Origin: Alphaproteobacteria bacterium
GTDB lineage: Bacteria > Pseudomonadota > Alphaproteobacteria > UBA828
Assembly: GCA_965214705.1 (NCBI GenBank)
Contig: CBDCCI010000002.1
Coordinates: 1,760,001-1,824,000 of the forward strand
Direction: 5' to 3'
Length of the DNA: 64,000 bases
In this document: positions 1 through 12,555 of the stretch, in pieces
Layout of the letters: every line of letters begins with the position of its first letter
Numbering within the stretch: position 1 is the first letter of the stretch
The notes under the pieces: generated by a model
What the model saw: the letters and a program-made list of their open reading frames with translations, nothing else
Told to the model about the DNA's origin: nothing
Database searches by the model: none
Program-made: the position numbers and the translations under genes

Positions 1-2272
1 TCCAAGGCTCCTGTCTCGAAGGTACGGTAGTCACCGTTATTTCTTCATTCCGTGGCCCGTCGGCGATCTCGCCGACGACAAGAAGCACCCTGGGGCTCAC
101 CGACGCCCCTTGCCGAAACGGAGTTCGGAGTTGCTTGTTGACATAGCCGGATGCCTGACGCGGTAGCGGCGCAGGCGAACCTTCGAATACGAGGATATTT
201 CTTGCTTGATCGAGAGACGTGTGCGCCTCGGGTCTGCGGTCGGGACAGTAGGCCCAGAGCGCGCGAGCCACGTTACCGGGTGCGAGCGAAGCCGACGGTC
301 TTCGCTCGAACAGGACACAGCATCGGCGGGCATCGCCCCCTCCGAACGGTCGTACGGCCTCAAGATCGAGCGATTGCGCCAGGATCGGTTCGTGCCATTC
401 GCGAAATCTGGCCCAGCTTTCCGCCCGCAAGGCGGACTTCTTAACAATCCAGGCCGCCGGGTCATGGTCCGGGCTTGCGAGATACAGCTGCCGCGCACGT
501 TTGATGAAGAGCTGGGCGATGTCGAAGTGCGGCGCATTCCTCCCGCCGGTCCAGAGATCGAGGTCCCTGTCGGCAAATTGCTCTAGATCTCGCTTGCGCA
601 CTTCGGCCTGGATATCCGCCATGGAAACCCATGGAGGGTTGGCGACGATACGGTCGACCTTTTGGTCGGACAAGCGGACCGGGCCGGTGGTGTTGGCGAT
701 GTACCAAGTCCACACGGAGTTCCCTTCCTTGGCGACGATCTCGATGAATGCGGCGTGGCACGCCTCTACTGCGGCCCGGTCGTCCTCTGGAACCGAATTG
801 CCGATGTCGGCCGACAATGGCCGGCCCATGCTGGCTTCCTCGATAAGCCGACGCAGGTCGTCGGTGAAGGTCGGCAAGTCGACGAACGATCGCGGTAGCA
901 GCAGTTCGCGCCCTTGCGGGGTCACAATCCGGATTTCCCCGTTCAGGGGACGGAAGAGCGACGTCTCGTCGTCCGCATTGACGAGCAGCGAGTCCCCCTC
1001 GTAGATCCGGATTCCCGCTTTCCCTCCTGGAGGTTCTGCAGGAAGGGCGCGGAGTAAAGTGGCCCGGGATATTTCCGCAGCTACCGGATGAACGTCGATA
1101 CCGTTTATCAGTCTCGCGACAACCGCGGCGCGTCTCGCGGCTGTATGGCCTTCAAGGGACGGTGTGCCGAGCAGGCGCTGCGCGGCGTAGTAGAGAATCG
1201 TCCCGGAGCCACATGCAGGATCGAGGAACCCGATGCCCTCCAATCGCCCCTGGTTCCGCTCATCCGCGATCGCTGCCGCAATGGCGCGATCGCACCAAGC
1301 CTCGTCGAGCAACTCCTCGACGATCAGACCGGCCAACCAATCCGGTGTGTAATATTCCCCAAAGACCTTACGGTCGCGTTCGCCGACGAAACGTTCGTAA
1401 AGCGGCCGAAGGACGTCTCCCCGCCGCCGGCGCCATTCATAGCCGTGGACCTGCTCCATGAGTCTTGCTGCCCACGTGCGACCACGGGTCGTTGCAAGAA
1501 TCCAGGCGACAATTCCGTCTACCAGCACGTCCGAGGGATTCGGAGCATCGTTCGGCTCGGCCAGTGTCTGCACCACGCCCCGGGCGAGAGCCACCAGAAA
1601 CGAATGAGTGACGAAGAGACGGTCTCGCGCCGCCTCGTTTTCCGGCTCCATGCTTGCGGTTCGGAGCATATCGAGCCACAGGTCTCTCTTCGTCCGTGTT
1701 TCCGCGAGATACGCGCCTCCCAGTTCCGAATAAATCGCCTGGAGCTCGTCGTGTGCGGGCTCGAAGAGGGGCCGCGGGTCCGAGGGAACCCATGGTTTTC
1801 CTATCGGGTCACCGCCGACGAGGGGACTGATGCGATGAATAAGGTCCTCGGCGCCCCTTGGCACGAACCCTTCGAGGAGTGTTCGGGCGCGCGTTTCGCG
1901 CTCGTTGTCGTAAACCCAGGCATGCCATACACGCCCGTCTGTCAGAATGCCCACCCACGGGCGCTCGGCACGTTCGTCGAACGCGAACATCTCCTTGTCA
2001 CGACGCAGTTCGCTCAGGACATAGCGCTCAAGCTGTTGCAGCGGCGATTCGTTGTTTTCCCGGGCCTGCGGTGCGTGGGGATCGCGCGCCAGTCCGCGAG
2101 CTTTCGTTTCGATGATCGTGCGCCGGCGTTGAAGGTAGAGGTCAGCCGGACCACCAGGAGTGGGGTACGAGAGGGTGTAGTCGACATCGAAGGAGCCGAG
2201 AAAATCCCCAACATTGCGCCGAACATTGTCCTCATGAAGCCTCGGTGACGCGTCCAAAAGCTGCTGGGCCGC
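1..2272 (-). CDS. Type IIG/IIL-like restriction-modification enzyme (N-terminal PD-(D/E)xK nuclease + gamma-class N6-adenine MTase); runs off the left edge; native start lost
   Basis: Not in the ORF track (no stop in window). Manual minus-strand translation in one frame gives PADLYL..IIETK..QLERY..GILTDGRVW, FGEYYTPDWLA (~1337-1363), FLDPACGSG (~1202-1228) and NPPW (629-640). Confidence 0.85.
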
Positions 2273-2370
2273 CTCGATGGTCCAGTGCCCGCGATTGAGG
2301 GTGAGCAGGCGTTCCGGCGATGCGGCCTGCGGGGTCAGGCTGGTGACGCCGTAAGCCGTCTCGCAGCTCC
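2273..2370 (-). pseudogene. ISAs1-family transposase, distal fragment (RSCETAYGVTSL..LNRGHWTIE), truncated and joined to the R-M gene
   Basis: Manual translation shows ISAs1 motifs ETAY.VTSL and RGHW.IE; continues 3961-4381 in frame once the 1590-bp IS110 is removed. Confidence 0.85.
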
Positions 2371-2379
2371 TTTTATGAG

Positions 2380-2702
2380 GCTGTGGAAGTCAAGGAACGA
2401 AGCCTCTGTCTACCTCATGTGGAGCCCTCCCTGGGTTGGCAGTATCTTCGGCAGCTTTCGCCGGGTCGAAACGCTTCTTGCATCGGTCGCGCCTCAAGTA
2501 CGCATACCCACCTTTTATCCGGGCGGTTGTCGGCAAGGGTGTGCCGAATCCGTCCCCCAATCCCGCTTGCTGCGGGCGCAGCGTTCCGGAGGCGGGACCC
2601 ATCTCTTGCCCGGCGTATTTCAGCCCGCGAGCAACCCGGCCACACGCCACCCGGCCCAGCGCCTGCCGCGTCCGGCCGGGCTGGAACAGTGCGGTCTCGG
2701 TG
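2380..2702 (-). ncRNA. Putative seekRNA/bridge RNA of IS1111-type element 1
   Basis: Contains TCTTGCC (2604-2610, identical to flank 3961-3967), TGCTGCG (2568-2574, 6/7 to the other target arm) and CTTTTAT (2512-2518, identical to element end 2370-2376). Scaffold motifs shared with 6898-7234. RNA limits are approximate. Confidence 0.7.
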
Positions 2703-3890
2703 TCAGGCGAGCTTGGCGCCCGTCGGCACGAGACCGGTCCCGGAGAACCGCCACAGCGCGATGAGCAGCTTGCGGGCGAGCGCCACGATCATCACTCGGC
2801 GAATGCGGCCCCGAGCTCCGGCGGTGCGTTCCTCGAACCACTTGCTGAGCACGCTGTCGGGTTGATGGCGCAACCAGCGCCACGCCATTTGGATGAGGAG
2901 GGCACGGATCCAGGCCGGACCGTCGCGGCCGATCCCCTGATCGCGTTGCACGTCCCCGCTTGCCCATGGGGTCGGCGTCAACCCGACCCAGCTCGCAAGC
3001 TCACGGCGGTTGTGGAAGTCGCGGTAGAAGATCTCGTGCTCAAGCAGCGTCGCGTCGTTCGCGCCGATCCCCTTCAGCTGGGTCAACGTCGCGATCTTGG
3101 CCGCCGCCTTCTCCTGGCTTCCCTCCGGGGCGACCGGCGCCGGGATAGCCTCGCCCTGGCGGGCAACCGCATCTCGCTCCGCCTCGACTTCCGCGATCTG
3201 CCGCTGCACGAGCGACAGCCGCTCCACAAGCCGAAGGATCTCCTGGCGAGCCCGCGGCGGGAACGGCGATCCATATGCGGTCACCGTGTCCGCGAACGTC
3301 TCCTCGAACCCTTTGGCGCGGGGGTCCAGGTCGAAGATGCCGTGCAGCTTCAGCAGCCCCTTGATCGAGTTGGTCAGCGAGGTCCGCTCCTTCACCAGGC
3401 GCCGGCGCTCGCGAAGCAGCCGCTTGCGATCCTCCTCCTCGACGCTCGGAACCCGCACCTGGCTCAGCACCGCAGCATCGCCCCGGTCGTGCGCGAGCAG
3501 CGCACGTACCATCTTCTTCGCGTCGATCCGATCCGTCTTGCGCTGCTTCGCCTTCCGGTTCACCAACAGGCTCGCCGGATCGAGCACCACCGTCTCGATG
3601 GACATCTCCCGGTCCAGCCAGCGCTCCAGCCAGAAGCCCTCGTAGCCCGCCTCGTAGCAGCACAGAACGCGCACCTCTCGGTCGAGAGCCCGTTCAGCCT
3701 TGGCCCGCTGCTTCTCGATCAGATCCCTGAGGCCTTCCGTGTCCGCCGGCCCGAGCGAGTGCAGGCCGATCTTTTCGCTGGTCGGGCTCTTGACCCCAAC
3801 CACCCAGCTCTTCCGGCTGACCTCAATCGCCACGTACAGCGTGTCATGCTCCGCCTCGGCCGGCGCAGCGGTCTCGTTCAATGAGGACAT
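2703..3890 (-). CDS. IS110-family recombinase/transposase
   Basis: VAIEVS, YEAG, KTDRIDA (DEDD-like, first residue E), GIG, GL.P.PWASG, VALARKL motifs. Confidence 0.95.
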   Translation of the reverse strand: MSSLNETAAPAEAEHDTLYVAIEVSRKSWVVGVKSPTSEKIGLHSLGPADTEGLRDLIEKQRAKAERALDREVRVLCCYEAGYEGFWLERWLDREMSIETVVLDPASLLVNRKAKQRKTDRIDAKKMVRALLAHDRGDAAVLSQVRVPSVEEEDRKRLLRERRRLVKERTSLTNSIKGLLKLHGIFDLDPRAKGFEETFADTVTAYGSPFPPRARQEILRLVERLSLVQRQIAEVEAERDAVARQGEAIPAPVAPEGSQEKAAAKIATLTQLKGIGANDATLLEHEIFYRDFHNRRELASWVGLTPTPWASGDVQRDQGIGRDGPAWIRALLIQMAWRWLRHQPDSVLSKWFEERTAGARGRIRRVMIVALARKLLIALWRFSGTGLVPTGAKLA

Positions 3891-3960
3891 ATCGTGTCTC
3901 CTTATGAGGATTGGTCAGAACGGCACCGTAGCGCCGGTCTTCGAGTCGCCTCATAGGATC

Positions 3961-4393
3961 TCTTGCCGGATTTGACGTGCCGGGTTTCGCGCCGCACGGC
4001 GAAGATCTGTCCGACGCCGGGGAAGTTGAGGTAGTCGTTGAGCTCGCTGGAGACCCAGATGGAGCGCCGCTCGCGGCGGCCGTGCTCGGGCTTGGGGCTC
4101 TCGTCCGCGAAGTCCGGCGCGCGGCCTGCGATGGCCTCGTCGAGAGTGAGCCGGATGTCGTCGAGCAAGGTGGGCTGGTTGCCCTTGACGGTGAACAGAT
4201 AGTCGGCGCCGCGGTCGCGCAGATAGGAGGCCAGCGCGCGCTGGGTGAGCAGAGCATCGGCGGTGACGGTGCGGCCCGCGATGTCGGGCACCGTCTCGAT
4301 ACCCGGATCAAGTCCGGGCAGGGGGATGATGGTGCCGATCTCGTTGGTGCGCTTCTCCCCTTCGTCGGCGTCGGGCCTCATGCCGACTTTTTT
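3961..4393 (-). pseudogene. ISAs1-family transposase, central DDE segment (second frame)
   Basis: TNEI, TADALLTQ, VKGNQPTL and EHGRRERR motifs; follows an A6G run at 4387-4393; cut by IS110 at 3960. Confidence 0.9.
4300..4320. repeat. REP-like palindrome TGCCCGGACTTGATCCGGGTA (minus strand) inside the ISAs1 coding region
   Basis: Perfect 6-bp stem CCCGGA/TCCGGG with 5-nt loop; translated as PGLDPG; resembles the common alphaproteobacterial CCGGRCTTGAYCCGG repeat. Confidence 0.55.
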
Positions 4394-5465
4394 GACCCCA
4401 GGGCGCCTTGGTGTCGTGGCCTATGATGCCGAGCACATGAGCCTGCGTGCCATCGTCATCGATGGCGCCGCGGATGGTCTTGCCGTCGATGGCCAGCGCG
4501 CTGTCGCCCGAGCCGTGGGCCTCGTGCCAGGCCCTGAGCGCGGCGTCGAGCTGGACCGGATCGACGCGGATCAGCAGGCTGCGCATCGCCGACAGGCTGG
4601 GCGGGCGGTACCGGCCGTCGCGGCGGCGCACGCGGAAGCGCTGCAGCACCCTGGGACTGAGGTCGTCGACCCATTCGCTGATCGCCTTGTAGCCGCGCAT
4701 GCCACAGAACGTCGCGGCGGCGGCGAGCGCCAGTACCGTGGGCAGCGCATGGCGCCGGCCCTGGCGGCGGCGGGGATCGTCGATGCCCTGGAAGAACTCG
4801 GGGAGGGATCGCATCTGTGCGGCGGTGAGCGTCATCTTCGGCACTCCATGTCGCAGACGGGGGTCGAGATCGTCGGCCCGCAGCCGGGCCCGCGCGGTGC
4901 GGGACAGGGGAAGAAGGAACACGCGCTTGGGCCGTGCGTGCTCGCTGTAGCCGGCCCCGCCGCGAGCGAAGCCGCGGGTGCGCCCGACCTCGATCCAGTT
5001 GGCCGCGCGGTAGACCGTACCCCGGAAGAGCGCCGGGTCCACGAACGTCTCCGCCAGCAGCACGTCGTGACCGAAGCGGATCGGCCAATCCCTCACCAGA
5101 CGGCGCGTGCACAAAGACAGCACCCGCGAGCCGAGATTGCGCTCACCGCCGGGCAGGATCAGGAAGCGCGAGTTGTTGGTGACCAGGTGAAGACGACCGA
5201 ACTGAAGGCCGCGGTCCCAGCCAATCCAGCGATCGCGCGCACCGCACTTCAGCGCCGGTGCCGAGAAGACCGCCAACGCCAGCCATCGCCCCCGATGGTG
5301 CGCGACATAGCGCACGGTCTCGCCCATCCCCGGCACCGCGCCGAGGTAGTGGTGTGTCTGCATCAAGTCGCGGAAGCGGGCCTCGTCCTCCGCCGCCACG
5401 ATGTCGACCACCACCTCCGATAGAGCTGCCACAGCTTGCCAGTCCCCACGGCTGCCTCGCGGCAC
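4308..5465 (-). CDS. DUF4338 (DruA-like) domain fused to ISAs1 transposase N-terminal region
   Basis: HHYLG, RDRWIGW, NNSRFLILP, ETFVDP..F.GT.YRAANW, then DDPRRRQGRRH and AIDGKTIRGA. Confidence 0.85.
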   Translation of the reverse strand: MPRGSRGDWQAVAALSEVVVDIVAAEDEARFRDLMQTHHYLGAVPGMGETVRYVAHHRGRWLALAVFSAPALKCGARDRWIGWDRGLQFGRLHLVTNNSRFLILPGGERNLGSRVLSLCTRRLVRDWPIRFGHDVLLAETFVDPALFRGTVYRAANWIEVGRTRGFARGGAGYSEHARPKRVFLLPLSRTARARLRADDLDPRLRHGVPKMTLTAAQMRSLPEFFQGIDDPRRRQGRRHALPTVLALAAAATFCGMRGYKAISEWVDDLSPRVLQRFRVRRRDGRYRPPSLSAMRSLLIRVDPVQLDAALRAWHEAHGSGDSALAIDGKTIRGAIDDDGTQAHVLGIIGHDTKAPWGQKSRHEARRRRRGEAHQRDRHHHPPART

Positions 5466-5532
5466 TCATATCAGGACACGGGGAGCAAGTTCACTATTTC
5501 AGGCAACTCGCTGGAGGGCCTAGCCAAGGGTT

Positions 5533-5574
5533 AAGGGTTGGGCAGGCTCTCTCTCGAGAGCCTGCCCAACCCTT
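5533..5574. repeat. Terminal 19-bp perfect hairpin of element A1 (4-nt loop)
   Basis: AAGGGTTGGGCAGGCTCTC-TCTC-GAGAGCCTGCCCAACCCTT. Confidence 0.95.
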
Positions 5575-6897
5575 TTGAACGGAGGCGCGGGCCACGAGAG
5601 GCGAAGTTGAGCTATGTGGAAAGTGCGCTGATGTCAGCGTCAGGCGGCATCCACCGGCAGCAGAGTTGCGCATGAGATCGACGCTCGCGCCGGCCTTTCG
5701 GCAGGCATGCGGGCGCACGCTGCGAGGACTGAGCGGGGTGTGAGCCGAGGGCTGTCAGCCCGGCCCAAGCGGAGACAGGTTCGGTCGTGCGTCGGCGCTT
5801 TGGCGCCGTTGCGCGGGGCCGAAGCGAGCGGGCGTCTCACGGTTTCCCCCTGTGGGTCGGCGGCACGGCCGGCGGACCGCGCGTCGAGCGGGGCTCATGG
5901 CGGCGGCGGATTTCGCGGACGAGGCGCATGACGCCGCCGCAGTGGGGGCAGGCCACGGGCGCGGTGTCGATCACGGTCTCTTCGTCGGGCTCGGCCCGAG
6001 CGCCGCCCACGCTTTCCTCGGGGACGGCGCAGCCGAGGGCGCCGAGAGTCTGGCGTGCTCTCTCCAGCGTGCTGGCGCGACAGCCGTTGGCGAGAATGCC
6101 GAAGTAGCGGATGCGGTGCATGCCGTCCGGCAGGACGTGCATCAGGAAGCGGCGGATGAACTCGTCTGCGCTCACGGTGGCGATGCCGTAGCGCGGCTTT
6201 CTCTGCCCCGGCGCCTTCGGCTTGCGGTGGCGGAAGGAGACCGTCTCGCCGTCGAAGGAGACGATGCAGCTGTCGGAGATGGCGATTCTGTGAGTGTAGT
6301 GCGACAGGTACCGGAAGACCTGCTCAGGCCCGCGGAAGGGCCGCTTGGCGTAGACCACCCAGTCCCTGGCCCGGGCGGCGGCAAGCGTGGCGTGGAACTC
6401 GCCGGGATTGGCGAGGTGGGCGAGGGTGCCGTGGAACTCCAGGTCCCCCCGGCCGTGGGCGCGGGCGAGCTCCTCGAGGAAGAGGCGGCGGAACAGGCTG
6501 CCGAGGACCTTGACGGGGGCGAGGAAGGTGGTGCTCCCCGTCTTCCACTCGCCGCTGTCTACGTCGAAGCCCGCGTTGGGCACGACCACGTGCAGGTGCG
6601 GGTGGAAGCGGAGCTTCTGATCCCAGGTATGGAGGACCGCTGTGCCGCCGATGCGCATGCCACCGTGGTGGGGATCGGCGGCGATGGTGCGCAGGGTCTC
6701 GGCGACGGCCCGGAAGAGGATGTCGAACACCACCCTTCGGTTGCAGAAGGCAATGGCGGCGACCTCCTTGGGCAGGGTGAAGACCACATGGAAGTAGGGC
6801 ACCGGCAGGATGTCCCCGGCGCGGGCCTCGCTCCAGAGGTTGGCGGCGAGACCCTGGCAGGTCGGGCAGTGGCGGTTGCGGCAGGAGTACTTATGAG

Positions 6898-7234
6898 CTC
6901 TCTCTGCAAGGCCCGACTTCATCTACGTGAATGGCATTCGTGATCTCCCCATTCGCATCCGCGGCCGATGTCCAGGCAGAACGTCTTTTCCACGCAGCAG
7001 CTTGTCACGCTGCTCAGCTCTTATCCGGTTCGGAACTCCGGCTCTCGCCGGCTCCGCGACCCCAATACCGCATCCAGGCGGTGACGACGTTCCGGGAGAC
7101 GGGACCCATCTGTAGAACGGTGCCATTCGGCGACCCAACTCTTGCCCGGTCACACGCCTTGCCCGGCATCCTCCGCGGTCGCGTCCGACCACGTCGGAAC
7201 CTCCTGCTCTCTCCTTCTCGTTCGGCCAACGCCG
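6898..7234 (-). ncRNA. Putative seekRNA/bridge RNA of IS1111-type element 2
   Basis: Same scaffold as 2380-2702 (TTATCCGG, CCCAAT, GTTCCGG, GGGACCCATC, CACACGCC). Variable 7-mers TGTAGAA (7111-7117) and TCCAGGC (7073-7079) each match their own target arm 5/7. Confidence 0.65.
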
Positions 7235-8431
7235 TCAGGAGACGATGGCGCCCTCGGGCACCAGTCCCTGGGTGGCATAGCGCCACAGCGCGATCAGCAG
7301 CTTGCGCGCGACCCCCACGATCGCTCGCTTCCTCGCTCGCCGGTCCCTCCCGCCACCGGCGTCCCTGGCAACGTAGGCATGGAACCACTTTGTGATCGCG
7401 CTTTCCGGTTGCAGTTTCAGCCAGCGCCAGGCCATCTGGATCATGTGTTTCCTGACATGCGAGGGGCCGGCCTTGCTGATGCCGAGATCGTGGTCAACAT
7501 CTCCGCTCGCCCACGGCACCGACGTCAACCCGGCCCAACTGCCCAGCTCGCGCCGATTTCGGAAGTCCCGATAGAACACCTCGCCGGCCAGCAGCGTCGC
7601 GTCGTTGAGGCCGATGCCGTGAATGCGCGTGAGCGCCGCAATCATCGCCGTTCCGTCGCGATCGGACGCGTCCTGGGCTTTCCGGCCAGCCTTCAGCAGG
7701 GCCCTCTTCTCGGCCTCGATCGTGTCGATTTGGCCCTCAATCAGGCGAAGCATCGACGACGCCCTCTCGATCTCCGCCCGCGCCCGCGGCGGCAGCGGCG
7801 CTCCATAGCCCGTCCGTGCGGGCGCGAGCCGTTCGAGAAAGTCCGGCTTGCGCGGCGCCAGATCGAAGATGCCGTGCAGCTGCAAAAGCCCCTTGATCCG
7901 ATTGTTGAGGCGGGTGCGCTCACTGACCAGCGTGTCCCTCTCGCGTAGCAGGCGCCTGGCGTCCTCCCGGTCCACATCCGGCACGCGCACCCAGGACATG
8001 GCCTCCGAATCGCCCTGGTCCCACGCCTTCAGTGCGCGAACCATCCTCCTCGCATCGATACGATCGGTCTTTTTCTTCTTGGCGCGCCGGTTCACCCGCA
8101 GGCTCGCCGGATCGTTCATGAAGATATCGATCTCCGCGTCACGGCGCTCGATATCGCGGGCCAGCCAGAACCCCTCGTAGCCCGCCTCGTAGGTCAGCAT
8201 TACCCGCGGACGGGCGCCCAACTCCCTCGCCACCCGTTCCCGCACCGACCCGACGAGATCCAACAGTGCCGCCGTGTCGGCAGCGGCCAGTGTGTGGATG
8301 CTGATGCTGCCGCCCGAGGCATCCGGGCAATGCACGCCCACAATCCACGATTTGAGGCTGATCTCCACCGCAACGTAAATCGTGCTATGAGTTGCGCCTG
8401 TCAGCGCGGTCGTGTCTGGACCATTCGACAT
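7235..8431 (-). CDS. IS110-family recombinase/transposase
   Basis: VAVEIS, YEAG, KTDRIDA, PWASG, VARKL; divergent paralog of 2703-3890. Confidence 0.95.
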   Translation of the reverse strand: MSNGPDTTALTGATHSTIYVAVEISLKSWIVGVHCPDASGGSISIHTLAAADTAALLDLVGSVRERVARELGARPRVMLTYEAGYEGFWLARDIERRDAEIDIFMNDPASLRVNRRAKKKKTDRIDARRMVRALKAWDQGDSEAMSWVRVPDVDREDARRLLRERDTLVSERTRLNNRIKGLLQLHGIFDLAPRKPDFLERLAPARTGYGAPLPPRARAEIERASSMLRLIEGQIDTIEAEKRALLKAGRKAQDASDRDGTAMIAALTRIHGIGLNDATLLAGEVFYRDFRNRRELGSWAGLTSVPWASGDVDHDLGISKAGPSHVRKHMIQMAWRWLKLQPESAITKWFHAYVARDAGGGRDRRARKRAIVGVARKLLIALWRYATQGLVPEGAIVS

Positions 8432-8733
8432 CCGTCCGCTCCGTTGTTGACGATCTCTCTCGGAGAGAAGGTGCTGGCCTTCTCTCCGAGTTTCTTTAGC
8501 CGTCAGACTCGATTCGGTGCCACCCGCTCATGGTATCTGAAGAGCGGATGCTCGCGCCCGCAGCCCTCGCAGGCGTACATGTGGCCGCCGAGCACGGCGG
8601 TGCGGCACGCCTCGATGGCGCCCATGACCTTGAGCCGGGCGGCGTCGATGCGCCCTTTGTGGCGCTCACGGAAAGCGGCGCCGGCGCGGCGGAGGATCTC
8701 CGCCACGCCCGCGCGTTCGGCCTCCACGCGCCG

Positions 8734-9612
8734 TCAGTTGCGCAACGCTGCGAAGCCTGAGATCGGGTGGTCGAGGCCCTCGAACATCTTGCCGGTGACG
8801 CGGGCGTAGTGACGGGTCGTGTTCGCGCTTCGATGGCCGAGCATGTCCCGGATCACCTCGATATCGCCGCCGCGCTCGAGGAGATGGGTCGCCGCCGAAT
8901 GGCGCAGGCAATGGAAGGTGTAGCTGCGGTCGAGCTCGGCAATGTCGCGCGCCCTCCTGAAGGCGGCCTGCAAGGTCTCCGTTGCGATGGGCCTGTCGAG
9001 CGAGACGCCGTAGAAGAGCCAGCTCGTCGGACGCGGCCAGATGTTCCTGTAGTAGGCGCGCAAGTAGTGGATGACGCTGTCCGGCAACGGTGCCATTCTC
9101 TCGGTGCCGCCTTTGCCGGAGGGGATGTGCAGCAGCTTCTTCTCCGACAGGATGTCGCCGACCTTGATGGCCAAGGTCTCGGAGATGCGGAGCCCGCCGC
9201 CATAGCCGGTGACAATGGCAGCACGGTGGCGGAGGTCGGGCGTCGCAAGGATGAGGTGCTCGACCTCCTGCTCCGACATGTAGCGCGGCAGCTTGCCGGG
9301 CTTCTTGCGGGAGCGCAGGCCGGCGACGTGGTCAGGCCAGCCGAGTGTGTCGATGTAGAGGAAGTTCAGCGCGGCGAAGGAGACGTTGGTCGTGCCCGGA
9401 CTGAGCCCCTTGTCGATCCGCCCCAGGTACCACTGGCGCACCTGCTCGGCGTCGAGCTCGTCCGGCGAGGCGTCGTAGTACCTGGCCAGGTTCTTGATCT
9501 CGCAGATGTAGGCCTTGGACGTGCTCGCGGCCAGATTGGCGATGCGGAGCTGCTCCTCCATGCGCTGGCGAAGAGGGGTGACGGTGTTCGTGTCGCACGC
9601 GGTCCCGGTCAT
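8734..9612 (-). CDS. Tyrosine recombinase/integrase of element A1
   Basis: GLRISE, GKGG, HCLRH, LGH and TRHY catalytic motifs; start chosen at MTGTAC after a GGAGA RBS. Confidence 0.93.
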   Translation of the reverse strand: MTGTACDTNTVTPLRQRMEEQLRIANLAASTSKAYICEIKNLARYYDASPDELDAEQVRQWYLGRIDKGLSPGTTNVSFAALNFLYIDTLGWPDHVAGLRSRKKPGKLPRYMSEQEVEHLILATPDLRHRAAIVTGYGGGLRISETLAIKVGDILSEKKLLHIPSGKGGTERMAPLPDSVIHYLRAYYRNIWPRPTSWLFYGVSLDRPIATETLQAAFRRARDIAELDRSYTFHCLRHSAATHLLERGGDIEVIRDMLGHRSANTTRHYARVTGKMFEGLDHPISGFAALRN

Positions 9613-9923
9613 TATCGATCTCCCTGGATCGCGACGGCGCGCCGCCGGACCGATCCGGCGACGGTCCGTCGCAGGGGTCGATGCTAACCACTGGTGATCG
9701 GGAGGCTGCTGGGGATCCGCCACTCGACGGGCGGAGCGCCACTGACGCAACCGGGAAGCGAACGCACAGGGCAAACGGCACCCGCGACGCCTCGGAAATG
9801 AATGAACTCTACGCCGCTAACTCCGCGTAGCGGCTTCGTTCTAAAGCCGAAGTACAAATCCGCCCTGGCAGGAATCTCGCGCAGGATGACGACATTGGTC
9901 AGATGTGGTAGCCTGTGGCCGTT

Positions 9924-9994
9924 CTCTTCACGGGGCCTCTTCACGGGGCCTCTTTACGGGGCCTCTTTACGGGGCCTCTTTACGGGGCCTCTTT
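9924..9994. repeat. Tandem repeat, 13-bp unit CTCTTYACGGGGC x5 plus partial
   Basis: Directly visible; no spacers; ends ~30 bp upstream of the lipoprotein start. Confidence 0.95.
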
Positions 9995-10116
9995 GAAGCG
10001 CGTTCGGGAGGGAGGCCCTGAAATCCATGACTACAAAAATCAGGAATTTACCGCTTGTGGCGGTGGCAGCGTTGGTGCTGACCGTGTCCGCATGCGGGGG
10101 TGGCGGCCCGGCCACC

Positions 10117-10203
10117 GACGGCGATGACATGATGCCCGGTGACGGCGACGGCATGACGCCTGGTGATGGCGATGGAATGATGCCGGGCGACGGCGACGGA
10201 ATG
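10117..10203 (+). repeat. 24-bp coding repeat (DGDGMMPG-like x3.6) in the lipoprotein linker
   Basis: Visible in DNA and translation. Confidence 0.9.
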
Positions 10204-10395
10204 GTGACCGAATACGGGCACGGGTTGGAAGCCAGCCCCCTGTCCTCGCCGACTGCCTCGAGCGCGACGGATTCGCTGGAGAATTTGGATGCCGCCGAGA
10301 CGGCGTTTGCGCCTGTAACGGCGCCCGTCAAGATCACGTCGGACGACATGGGCCAGGCAGGCGTCGTGTTGCTGGAGGACGACGAAGAGGCGTAA

Positions 10396-12555
10396 CCCAA
10401 GTTGGCACTTTTCCGCTGCCTGTGTTCCCTATTGGTTTGATTCAACGCGATATTTTTCTCGGTCGATTCCAACATGGCCCCACATTTTGTGAGATTCTGT
10501 CAGCTCATCAGACGGGTCCTCGTGCGGTGGATGGCGGGGTCCACGCCCGCCGCCGAGGAGATTGCGGCAACCTCGGCGGCCGGGCGCGTGTCCTGGCGGT
10601 TGACGATCAAGGTGCCGTCGGTCTGGCGCAGGCGCGTGGTGATCCGCACCCAGGTCCGCATGCTCTCGCGGATCGACGCCCAGCACTTGTGGATGCCGCG
10701 CGCGGCCAGCCGGGTACGGATCAGATGCACGGCGTGGTAGGCCAGCACGGCGATCAGCAGGTGGGCCGCGATGCGCCGGTCGAGCTGGTGCCAGATCGGG
10801 CGAAGGCCGAGCTCGGATTTCAGGCTCCGGAATGTCGCCTCGATATCCGTGATCCGCCAGTACGTCCGCAGGACCGTCTCGATGTCCCAGTCGACGTGGC
10901 TGGTGCGCAGCACATAGGCACCGGCGCCCTCATCGGCCTCGTCGTATCGCGGCCTGCGCTTGAAGCGCACGGCGGTGGCATTGGGGCCGGTTTTCGCCCT
11001 CTCGACCGTGATCTCGTAGTGCCTGGCGACGGCGGAGAAGCGCTGCTTGAGGTGGCCTATGCTCTCCAGCACCTTGTCGTAGCGCTTGAGGCGGCCCTTG
11101 ACCGGGAGGCCGCCGTGGAGCCTTTCCAGCGCCGCCTCGAAGCGGTTCCGCCTCAGGCCGATGATCGCGTTCTCGGCCTTCTTCTTGCCCTCGCTGACGA
11201 CGTAGAGCCGCGCCTCGCCGTCCTCGCTGGCAAGCCGCCAGGCCCGCACCTCGTGGCGCGCGCTGGTGATCAGCAGGGCCTCGGGTCCGCCCTCGGGCGG
11301 CGCAGGCCTGGCACCGCGGCTGACCGCGATCCAGTCGTAGCCCTGCTCGCCCAGCCACGCGATGTTTTTCTCGGTGGCGATGCCCGCGTCCATGACCACC
11401 GTGGGCTTCGGCGCCGTGCCGCCGCACACCGCCTCGAGCCGCGCCAGCGCCTCGTGCAGCGTGCCCGGCTCGCTCACGTTGCCCGGCAGGATCTCGCAAC
11501 TGCGCGGGAAGCCCGCGCCGTCGAGCGCCAGCGCCAGCGTGATGAGGGGACAGTCGTCGCGCTTCTGCTTGGAGCGCCCGAACCTGGGAAGCTCGCCGCC
11601 CGTGTGGCCGTGGTAGTGGACGTTGGTGAGATCGTAGAAGGCGATCGTCTCGGGCAGGTCGAGCAGTGCGCGCTCACGGTTGAACAGCTCCCGCTGGATG
11701 GCGGCGCGGTGGCGCCAGAGCAGGTCGCCGATGCGGTAGAGCGTCTTGCGCCGCAGCGCCTTGCGGTCGCCCTCCAGGCCCAGGAGCTCGGCGGCCGCGC
11801 TGTCGTGGCGGAGCCAGCGGCTGGTATCACGCTCGCTGGCGGGATGGACCATCCTGGCGACGATCAGCGCGCTGGCGATGCGCCCGTCGCGGCCCTTGAT
11901 GTCGAGGCCGTGGAGGATTTCGGCGAAGCCGAGGGCGTCGAGGGCCTTGAGGCACAGGCGCTCGCAGCCGACCGTGCGCGGGTTCTCGTGCTCCAGGGTA
12001 TCGAGGTCGACGGTGGCGATGTCGGGCTTGCGCGCCTCTTCCTGCATCGCCTCGACGCGGAACCCCCTGGCCCTGAGCTTGGCGACGATGTCCTCGGCTG
12101 CGGCCCGCACATCCGCCTCGCCCTCGAACAGCGGCGGCTTGCCGTGAAGCAGCGCCTCGGCGAGTTCGGTGACGGCCTTCCACTTCTCGCGCGGCACCGG
12201 ATAGTCGGTGCCGAGATTGAGCAGCGTCCTGTGGCGCACCTTGTCGCCGACGCGCTGGGCGAGCACGAGGCGATGGCTTCGGACCGGCTGGCCGGCCTTG
12301 TCGGTGTGTGTCCTGGTTGCCTTGATGTACATGGCGGCGCCGTTTCTGCGATGCCTGTTTCGCATACACGGCGTTCGCGGCATCTGGCAAGAGGGATATC
12401 GACTCAACTCCAAAGTCCTGGCCCCACAATTGGCTTCCAGGACCACGAATGGCAAATGTGGGTCTCAGGTGTCCTCCAACCCCAACATCTAGTGGTTCAG
12501 CGCCGCAAAACTAGCTCGAACAGGCTCGGCTGGTCGGAAAAAGTGCCAACTTGGG
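10396..12555 (-). mobile_element. IS1634-family element 1, inserted in the IS66 terminal repeat
   Basis: TIR CCCAAGTTGGCACTTTT/AAAAGTGCCAACTTGGG; flanked by GTAA on both sides. Confidence 0.9.
10500..12332 (-). CDS. IS1634-family transposase
   Basis: FYDLTNVHY, FGRSKQKRDD, VMDAGIAT, IEATFRSLKSELGLRPIWH. Confidence 0.93.
   Translation of the reverse strand: MYIKATRTHTDKAGQPVRSHRLVLAQRVGDKVRHRTLLNLGTDYPVPREKWKAVTELAEALLHGKPPLFEGEADVRAAAEDIVAKLRARGFRVEAMQEEARKPDIATVDLDTLEHENPRTVGCERLCLKALDALGFAEILHGLDIKGRDGRIASALIVARMVHPASERDTSRWLRHDSAAAELLGLEGDRKALRRKTLYRIGDLLWRHRAAIQRELFNRERALLDLPETIAFYDLTNVHYHGHTGGELPRFGRSKQKRDDCPLITLALALDGAGFPRSCEILPGNVSEPGTLHEALARLEAVCGGTAPKPTVVMDAGIATEKNIAWLGEQGYDWIAVSRGARPAPPEGGPEALLITSARHEVRAWRLASEDGEARLYVVSEGKKKAENAIIGLRRNRFEAALERLHGGLPVKGRLKRYDKVLESIGHLKQRFSAVARHYEITVERAKTGPNATAVRFKRRPRYDEADEGAGAYVLRTSHVDWDIETVLRTYWRITDIEATFRSLKSELGLRPIWHQLDRRIAAHLLIAVLAYHAVHLIRTRLAARGIHKCWASIRESMRTWVRITTRLRQTDGTLIVNRQDTRPAAEVAAISSAAGVDPAIHRTRTRLMS

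Follow-up and report, generated by a model that had tools for sequence, protein, structure and literature searches.

Can the site that an insertion sequence occupies be read from its own non-coding DNA? The question is raised by two elements, here called E1 and E2, located in a 64,000-nt window of an alphaproteobacterial genome (GCA_965214705.1, GTDB lineage UBA828; positions 1760001-1824000 of contig CBDCCI010000002.1, designated C3). Coordinates without a prefix are positions in this window, and C1, C2 and C3 are contigs of the genome. A previous sequence-only reading had described the two as IS1111-type elements sharing a non-coding scaffold with three short variable slots, of which the first two followed the flanks of each element and the third its end. 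We conclude, with a probability of about 0.87, that E1 and E2 are IS110/IS1111 elements, each with an RNA-guided recombinase and a seek/bridge RNA that carries both target and donor guides. The anatomy of the elements, their exact ends, the matching of guides to flanks, the covariation across relatives and the repeated use of one site were all established in the analysis. By analogy with the published work on IS621, ISEc11 and ISPa11, the RNA would be made, bound by the protein and used to direct recombination. Both this mechanism and its natural reprogramming have already been published, and E1 and E2 reveal no new mechanism.

The clearest evidence for the exact ends comes from copies of the host genes that lack the element. 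E1 (2372-3959, minus strand, 1588 bp) interrupts the transposase gene of an ISAs1-family element. Six empty copies of this gene (C1:639713-639853 and five more) join position 2371 directly to 3960 and have the dinucleotide CT once, while the occupied site has it twice, which fixes E1 at 2372-3959 with cores at 2370-2371 (right junction) and 3960-3961 (left junction), CT on the plus strand and AG in the sense of the element. The AG core that had been proposed at both junctions of E1 is thus confirmed. The same single-core pattern of the IS110 family, one AG in the empty site and two in the occupied one, was found for E1 and for its relatives E1b and E1c elsewhere in the genome. One of the six empty copies of the E1 host gene (C3, around 417114) is entirely without the AG core. 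The N-terminal part of this host gene (3962-5465 and 1800-2369) matches the Pfam families DruA (a Druantia protein) and DDE_Tnp_1_assoc.

E2 (6890-8536, minus strand, 1647 bp) is inserted in an IS91-family transposase gene (5837-6889 and 8539-8700), and its flanks are joined in empty IS91 copies, 66 of them exact and about 10 variant. The core at the left junction (8537-8538) is again CT on the plus strand, AG in element sense. At the right junction the core position (6888-6889) reads TA here, whereas the empty sites and the copies with 92% identity have TT on the plus strand. We also considered ends two bases shorter for E2, with a lone AG-AA variant (C1, around 3005630) as the true target. 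This model was rejected because the 66 exact and about 10 variant empty IS91 copies, together with two other E2-type empty sites, have AA alone, because the left donor guide described below matches the longer end at 7/7, and because the empty site of E1c fixes the homologous end.

Both elements contain one intact gene on the minus strand, coding for transposases of 395 amino acids in E1 (2703-3890) and 398 in E2 (7235-8431) that share 53% identity. Each protein matches the Pfam families DEDD_Tnp_IS110 (PF01548, the DEDD/RuvC-like N-terminal domain) and Transposase_20 (PF02371, the C-terminal transposase domain), and both exceed the cut-off of 140 bits for NCBIfam NF033542, "IS110 family RNA-guided transposase", with 200.7 (E1) and 174.8 bits (E2). 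The C-terminal motif GL-P----S(t)G, given for IS1111 transposases in a passage of PMC11187229, is found at residues 303-312 of E1 and, by alignment, in E2 too. The non-coding DNA is distributed very unequally, with 331 nt downstream and 69 nt upstream of the gene in E1 and 345 and 105 nt in E2. Subterminal inverted repeats have 8 bp in E1 (2374-2381 with 3948-3955) and 6-7 bp in E2; a statement in PMC11208160 puts those of IS1111 elements at 7-17 bp. A protein search with the transposases returned a single name, "IS110 family transposase", and a search of PDB sequences found as sole relative the ISCro4 transposase (E = 0.005), which was of no help for grouping. These features indicate that E1 and E2 belong to the IS110 family and have the IS1111 layout, that they are distinct from each other and structurally intact, and that both contain a conserved 3' seek/bridge RNA scaffold, as had been recognized from the letters and is now backed by the Pfam and NCBIfam matches. 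Their placement in IS1111 is based on the layout, the subterminal repeats, the C-terminal motif and the order of the guides.

The scaffold itself was followed with an nhmmer profile built from the copies in this genome and run on 80 related loci fetched from public genomes. It was found downstream of the gene in 70 of the 80, in two of them only in part; the ten loci without a hit (L044, L046, L060, L062, L081, L082, L087, L094, L097 and L110) include several with truncated genes. Partial hits ending before model position 160 (L035 and L041) were dropped. The words that the sequence-only reading had noticed are present in both non-coding regions of the window, and the profile match delimits the conserved core of the RNA at 2503-2676 in E1, where alignment and covariation add to it, and at 7010-7182 in E2, where alignment does, both on the minus strand. 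The total of 80 scaffold instances, 65 of them distinct, gives an alignment with a strongly conserved scaffold and two hypervariable slots, which we have called A and B.

The structure was derived from 58 sequences with RNAalifold and a separate count of pairs. Stem P1 (columns 34-45 with 101-110) was paired in 99.6% of cases, with four pairs changed on both sides, and the small hairpin P2 in 98.9%. Between P1 and P2 lies a loop, whose two unpaired sides are slots A and B. Covariation scored 0.244, against 0.112 in shuffles (none of 500 reached 0.244) and at most 0.082 with slid partners, although, by the tool's own caveat, such measures are inflated by the relatedness of the sequences. Folding both regions had been proposed as a check on the guides. 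Minimum-energy folds of the whole non-coding region of each element were uninformative; the 58-sequence consensus leaves slots A and B unpaired. The first of the slots originally proposed falls in this loop. The second (2568-2574 in E1) falls inside a conserved stem-loop, the hairpin P3 (2562-2576, minus strand), whose helix, helix 3, is 84.9% paired.

Guides and flanks were compared for every element with locatable ends, those in which a left or right end was not found being left out of the matching count; the ends of L092, L093 and of an 88% identical copy of E2 were set by hand. Slot B has the same sense as the left flank and ends in the core AG. Its seven bases before the core match the flank at a mean of 4.47/7 over 60 non-redundant pairs, and at least 5/7 match in 30 of these 60 compared to 2.1% of 3502 pairs mismatched as controls. 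Slot A corresponds to the right flank in reverse complement, with a mean of 5.83/7 in the best of three registers over 69 non-redundant pairs; at least 6/7 match in 51 of the 69, compared to 1.4% of 4636 mismatched controls. In its main register slot A is a 9-mer ending one base before P2 and representing the two core positions plus seven flank bases. This indicates that the true right target guide is slot A, which lies 5' of the first of the proposed slots, in an internal loop closed by a covarying stem.

In the window all four target guides are on the minus strand. The left target guide of E1 (2603-2610) is identical to left flank plus core AG at 8/8, and that of E2 (7110-7117) shares 6/8 bases with left flank plus core as they stand at the occupied junction. 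For the right target guide of E1 (2627-2635), the reverse complement matches bases 1-7 of the right flank at 5/7 plus one wobble, with 0/2 at the core. In E2 (7137-7145) the reverse complement corresponds to AA at the core position followed by right-flank bases 1-7, with a flank match of 6/7 at the IS91 site and of 7/7 at another site, found empty at C1:621479. The left guides are the first of the proposed slots extended by one base, and all the strings on which that proposal was built are indeed where it had placed them: TCTTGCC at 2604-2610 and again at 3961-3967, TGTAGAA at 7111-7117 against TGAAGAG at 8538-8544 (5/7), TGCTGCG at 2568-2574 and TCCAGGC at 7073-7079. The last two, taken to be opposite-strand guides, belong to a chance match. 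The E1 heptamer of this second slot recurs unchanged in 44 of 80 elements, among whose right flanks there are 34 different sequences, and in the register proposed the slot matches the flank at a mean of 2.13/7 (n = 47), the 6/7 of E1 being the single best of the 47. Hence, when followed across homologs with mapped sites, the first slot changes with the flank and the second does not, and the idea of differently programmed guides that fit their own sites holds for slots 1 and 3 and fails for slot 2. The non-coding tail of such elements appears to be readable for target prediction, but a 6/7 match in a single genome is insufficient to call a guide.

The third slot, which had been seen to track the end of the element, is the left donor guide. 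It is located at 2512-2518 in E1 and 7018-7024 in E2, both on the minus strand, and reproduces the five terminal bases of the right end followed by AG (the core AG in E1). Among relatives 10 of 11 distinct pairs were exact, over seven variants of the right end. No second donor guide had been identified by the sequence-only reading. A likely candidate for the right donor guide can now be placed at 2559-2564 in E1 and 7064-7069 in E2 (minus strand), at the foot of P3 plus two bases, where in reverse complement it agrees with the five bases that begin the left end at 4/5 and 5/5, respectively. Over 33 distinct pairs its third base tracks the left end in most subfamilies, not in all.

The core was AG, in element sense, in 59 of 59 distinct left junctions (the search pattern allowed AG or AA) and in 58 of 65 right junctions, the others being AA in four cases and TA, AC and GG in one each. 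For E2 the right junction reads TA in the window copy, whereas its other copies and the empty sites have AA there, and the right guide specifies AA at the core positions in E2 and in nine other guide-flank pairs. On the opposite strand the core reads CT; slot A is then a left guide whose last bases are CU or UU and slot B a right one, which is also the order in IS621. For that element a passage of PMC11208160 includes the core in all four pairings, and part of PMC11208158 states that the top strand is cut 3' of the core, that the first core base is variable (TT works) and that the second, a T, is nearly invariant. These rules would explain the junctions of E2, the TT core of the target being kept at one of them and the CT of the donor at the other.

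Put together, each element has a short left end, the gene for a DEDD/RuvC-type recombinase, a non-coding region of about 330 nt encoding the putative seek/bridge RNA, and a right end with the subterminal inverted repeat. In the predicted RNA the covarying stem P1 would close an internal loop, with hairpin P2 preceding its 3' side. On this 3' side lies a putative guide of 8 nt, identical to left flank plus core AG, which should therefore pair with the bottom strand. Further 3', a segment of 5-6 nt at the foot of P3 could pair with the first bases of the left end, and there is a donor segment of 7 nt that reproduces the final bases of the right end and the core. The recombinase loaded with this RNA would then hold the right-end/core/left-end junction of the circular element against the target and exchange strands at the core. 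The guides of the two elements differ, and their targets differ as well, an ISAs1-family transposase gene for E1 and an IS91-family one for E2.

A number of observations weigh against this interpretation of E1 and E2 as RNA-guided elements. The recombinases, with 395 and 398 amino acids, exceed the 330-350 that part of PMC11187229 states for the IS1111 family. A scan of positions 1-12000 of the window against Rfam gave no family at E up to 1, and single-sequence folds of the loop regions alone were no better than shuffles (z = 0.25 and -0.65). The E1 single-sequence fold pairs its two target guides with each other; these (2603-2635) are mutually complementary, with -7.9 kcal/mol, which 1.4% of the control pairs equal or exceed. 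Such pairing was no feature of the family (-2.42 kcal/mol for own pairs and -2.04 for controls), and in this copy it may lower activity or may be a coincidence. The register of slot A is shifted by 1-2 bases in a minority of relatives, including the 93% relative of E1, and the right guide of E1 itself fits its present site weakly. The right donor guide, still a candidate, consists of few bases that partly belong to a stem, and its covariation with the left end is imperfect. By plain matching the IS91 site of E2 scores 11-12/15, and 179 other places of the genome, not known to be used, score at least 12, so that position weights, wobble or other factors must matter. The RNA runs that could be found, two metatranscriptome runs containing 4-5% of the words, consist of contigs over small, scattered parts and are uninformative about a small RNA, its ends or its strand.

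Some of these points would also fit the possibility that both copies in the window are stranded, immobile relics, whose guides only record past targeting. In the 98-100% subfamily of E1 no copy but E1 itself has its full length, the two others being cut at the same internal point, and its right guide, besides fitting poorly, can pair with its left one. In E2 the TA at the right junction alters the base that corresponds to the T described as nearly invariant in the IS621 core in part of PMC11208158; because of this change, the window copy may no longer excise. However, each of the two retains an open transposase frame of full length, intact ends on both sides and four intact guide segments. In addition, sequencing runs of unrecorded kind, which we took as DNA, contain a form in which the E1 flanks are joined without the element, although this may be another, empty copy of the target. 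Immobility of both copies is thus a possibility to keep in mind, but we consider it unlikely. As for the present site of E1, it agrees at 13/15 with the target specified by its guides and is among the 19 best of some 15.8 million positions in the genome. A perfect target for either pair of guides was found nowhere in the genome, the best being 14/15 for E1 and 13/15 for E2.

The imperfect site of E2 had been taken as a sign of mismatch tolerance, and its value depends on how the element came to be there so many times. Among about 96 copies of one IS91-family element, the census gave the 66 exact and about 10 variant empty sites already mentioned and 18 occupied ones. Two further copies are odd, one (C1, around 3005630) with donor and target dinucleotides side by side and no element, and another (C2, around 15360) with a deletion of three bases; both may be scars of aberrant excision. 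E2 and its 92% identical copies have the same guides and the same position in IS91. Paired by hand with the empty target, the left guide forms five Watson-Crick pairs, two wobble pairs and one mismatch, and the right guide pairs at 8/9 positions including both of the core, which indicates that part of the apparent mismatches of E2 are wobble pairs and a target core other than CT.

If IS91 had spread as a composite already carrying E2, the imperfect match would say nothing about tolerance. Such a spread would agree with the identical junctions at all 18 occupied sites, with a minor flank variant that the occupied copies share and that is seen in few empty ones, and with the near identity of both inserts and flanks; about 70 intact IS91 copies could act in trans. 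Over the 13 full copies of E2, however, the inserts are a median of 0.0% apart and the flanks 0.25-0.44%, i.e., the flanks are slightly more diverse than what they contain. Furthermore, the window copy has diverged by about 8% over its whole length from the other copies, while its IS91 flanks differ by only 13 and 1 bases in 1100 (about 99-100% identity). Composite spread would still need a second insertion at the same base to account for this, and the divergence points to at least two independent hits of the IS91 site by elements with the same guides. E2-type copies were also found at two other sites, each with its own empty copy and with a right guide that matches 7/7 flank bases (for the 88% identical copy this figure allows for a missing junction base). 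The comparison of inserts and flanks leans towards repeated insertion, with some composite spread perhaps in addition; as the explanation for the copies in IS91, composite spread seems to us decidedly improbable. Repeated and apparently independent insertion supports the mismatch tolerance proposed for E2, since one imperfect site was used again and again.

The relatives of E1 within the genome provide what appears to be a sharper reprogramming series than the comparison of E1 with E2. E1b is 93% identical to E1, and E1c, with three copies, 80%; each has a mapped empty site, and in each the slots differ from those of E1 and match the element's own site. In E1b slot B matches at 8/8 and slot A at 8/9, the latter shifted by two bases, and in E1c slot B matches left flank plus core at 7/8 and slot A 8/9. 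The 111 differences between E1 and E1b in 1594 aligned columns are clustered in slots A and B and in the final 80 bases leading up to the right end. The guide positions differ at 7/9 and 4/6, the hairpin of 17 nt between the guides is identical, and the flanking stems differ by compensatory changes only. In total four sublineages of E1 (E1a-E1d) and three of E2 occur in the genome, and empty sites were mapped for three of the former and for all of the latter. One could speculate that guides are replaced as blocks by an active process, either gene conversion between co-resident elements or templating by the target, and that core settings are separate, with a target-core guide of TT in E2 and several relatives, a donor CT, and unlike junctions that regenerate both cores on excision. 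We regard this as a long shot. If true, the genome would be a natural experiment in the reprogramming of bridge RNAs, with about 96 IS91 targets of which 18 are filled.

Some other features of these relatives can be mentioned. Two of the three E1c copies (C1:1326834-1328396 and C1:2642145-2643707) lie in the 3' end of other IS110-family transposase genes, and at locus L034 one element is found in the 3' end of the gene of a second copy, i.e., IS110 elements targeting IS110 elements. The two 98% identical copies of E1 (C3:525942-527487 and C3:533042-534521) are cut at their common internal point by the same foreign sequence, and at a distance of 70 bases from one of them there is a left-end fragment on its own, in what looks like a rearranged cluster.

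That the guide-flank matches are due to chance or shared ancestry, with the protein choosing the target and the variable slots being an unconstrained loop, is extremely improbable: slot 2 does illustrate how a region of 330 nt can give a 6/7 match by chance, and related sequences do inflate covariation measures, but guide and flank agree in 51 of 69 and 30 of 60 pairs and in only 1-2% of the mismatched controls, elements 93% identical, with differences clustered in the slots (and near the right end), occupy different sites that match those slots, and passages of PMC11187229 and PMC11208160 report experimental demonstration of the mechanism in relatives.

The ends of the elements and their surroundings showed additional features. 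A -35-like box, CTTGAC, faces outward near the right end of E1 (2388-2394, minus strand), and by eye, uncounted, it was seen at a similar distance, some 15-20 bases from the right end, in most of the relatives (loci L031-L110). By analogy with what is described for IS621, this box and the left end could form a promoter in the circular form. At the left end of E1 (3885-3959, minus strand) the repeat is present a third time, overlapping the ribosome-binding site, and this third copy pairs with the terminal one (-29 kcal/mol, z = -3.55). In this model the fold would block translation of read-through transcripts coming from outside. The leader of E2 has a strong hairpin that is different from that of E1. 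Many relatives (L061, L063, L065-L068, L070, L073, L078, L106 and L108) adjoin similar G-rich repeats that are matched by their right guides, which suggests subfamilies targeting REP-like repeats. Next to the IS91-family transposase gene that contains E2, and directly adjoining it, there is a tyrosine recombinase gene (8734-9774) with Phage_integrase and SAM-like domains.

RNA-guided recombinases of the IS110/IS1111 type are under development as programmable tools for DNA insertion. From this perspective the window and its genome are a well-mapped natural set, with exact ends, empty sites, four readable guide segments (one of them a candidate), sublineages with exchanged guides and an imperfect site that has been reused. 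This set could help to define the guide registers, the rules for wobble and mismatch and the tolerance at the core for an IS1111-type subfamily with a larger recombinase.

Among known systems the closest are the IS1111 elements with seekRNAs. According to a part of Siddiquee et al. (2024; PMC11187229), the downstream non-coding region of IS1111 elements gives rise to an essential seekRNA, which is recovered together with the purified transposase, the match to the top strand lies 5' of that to the bottom strand, and ISEc11 and ISXne4 are a natural redirection pair. A passage of Durrant et al. (2024; PMC11208160) gives bridge RNAs predicted in the right end of 93% of IS1111 elements. As described there for ISEc11, ISXne4, ISPa11 and ISKpn4 (PMC11187229, in part), E1 and E2 have the non-coding region downstream of the gene, subterminal inverted repeats, two short target matches in one putative RNA with the top-strand one 5', the GL-P----SG motif, and close relatives apparently redirected in nature by replacement of the matching bases. 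They differ in the size of the transposase (395-398 amino acids against the 330-350 stated in that text), in belonging to a subfamily of Alphaproteobacteria-type genomes, in targeting other insertion sequences, in having donor guides that can also be read, the right one as a candidate, and in being known from sequence alone.

The resemblance to the IS621 bridge RNA, as far as described in parts of PMC11208160 and PMC11208158, includes the internal loop with two guides that would pair with opposite strands around a 2-nt core, the core itself being included, and a second pair of guides that would read the joined ends of the element, the right one still a candidate in E1 and E2. When the other DNA strand is read, the core is CT and the order of the guides is the same, left 5' and right 3'. 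Unlike IS621, E1 and E2 would encode the RNA in the right end rather than the left, so that the element is inverted relative to the frame of the guides; they have no sequence match to it (no Rfam hit), and the predicted donor part is a junction of several hairpins instead of a simple internal loop. Finally, ISPpu9 and ISPpu10, described as REP-targeting in part of PMC12288879, also belong to the IS110 family, insert into repeats and have a gene for a small RNA downstream of that for the transposase. E1 and E2 differ from them in targeting the transposase genes of other insertion sequences, although several of their relatives do adjoin REP-like repeats.

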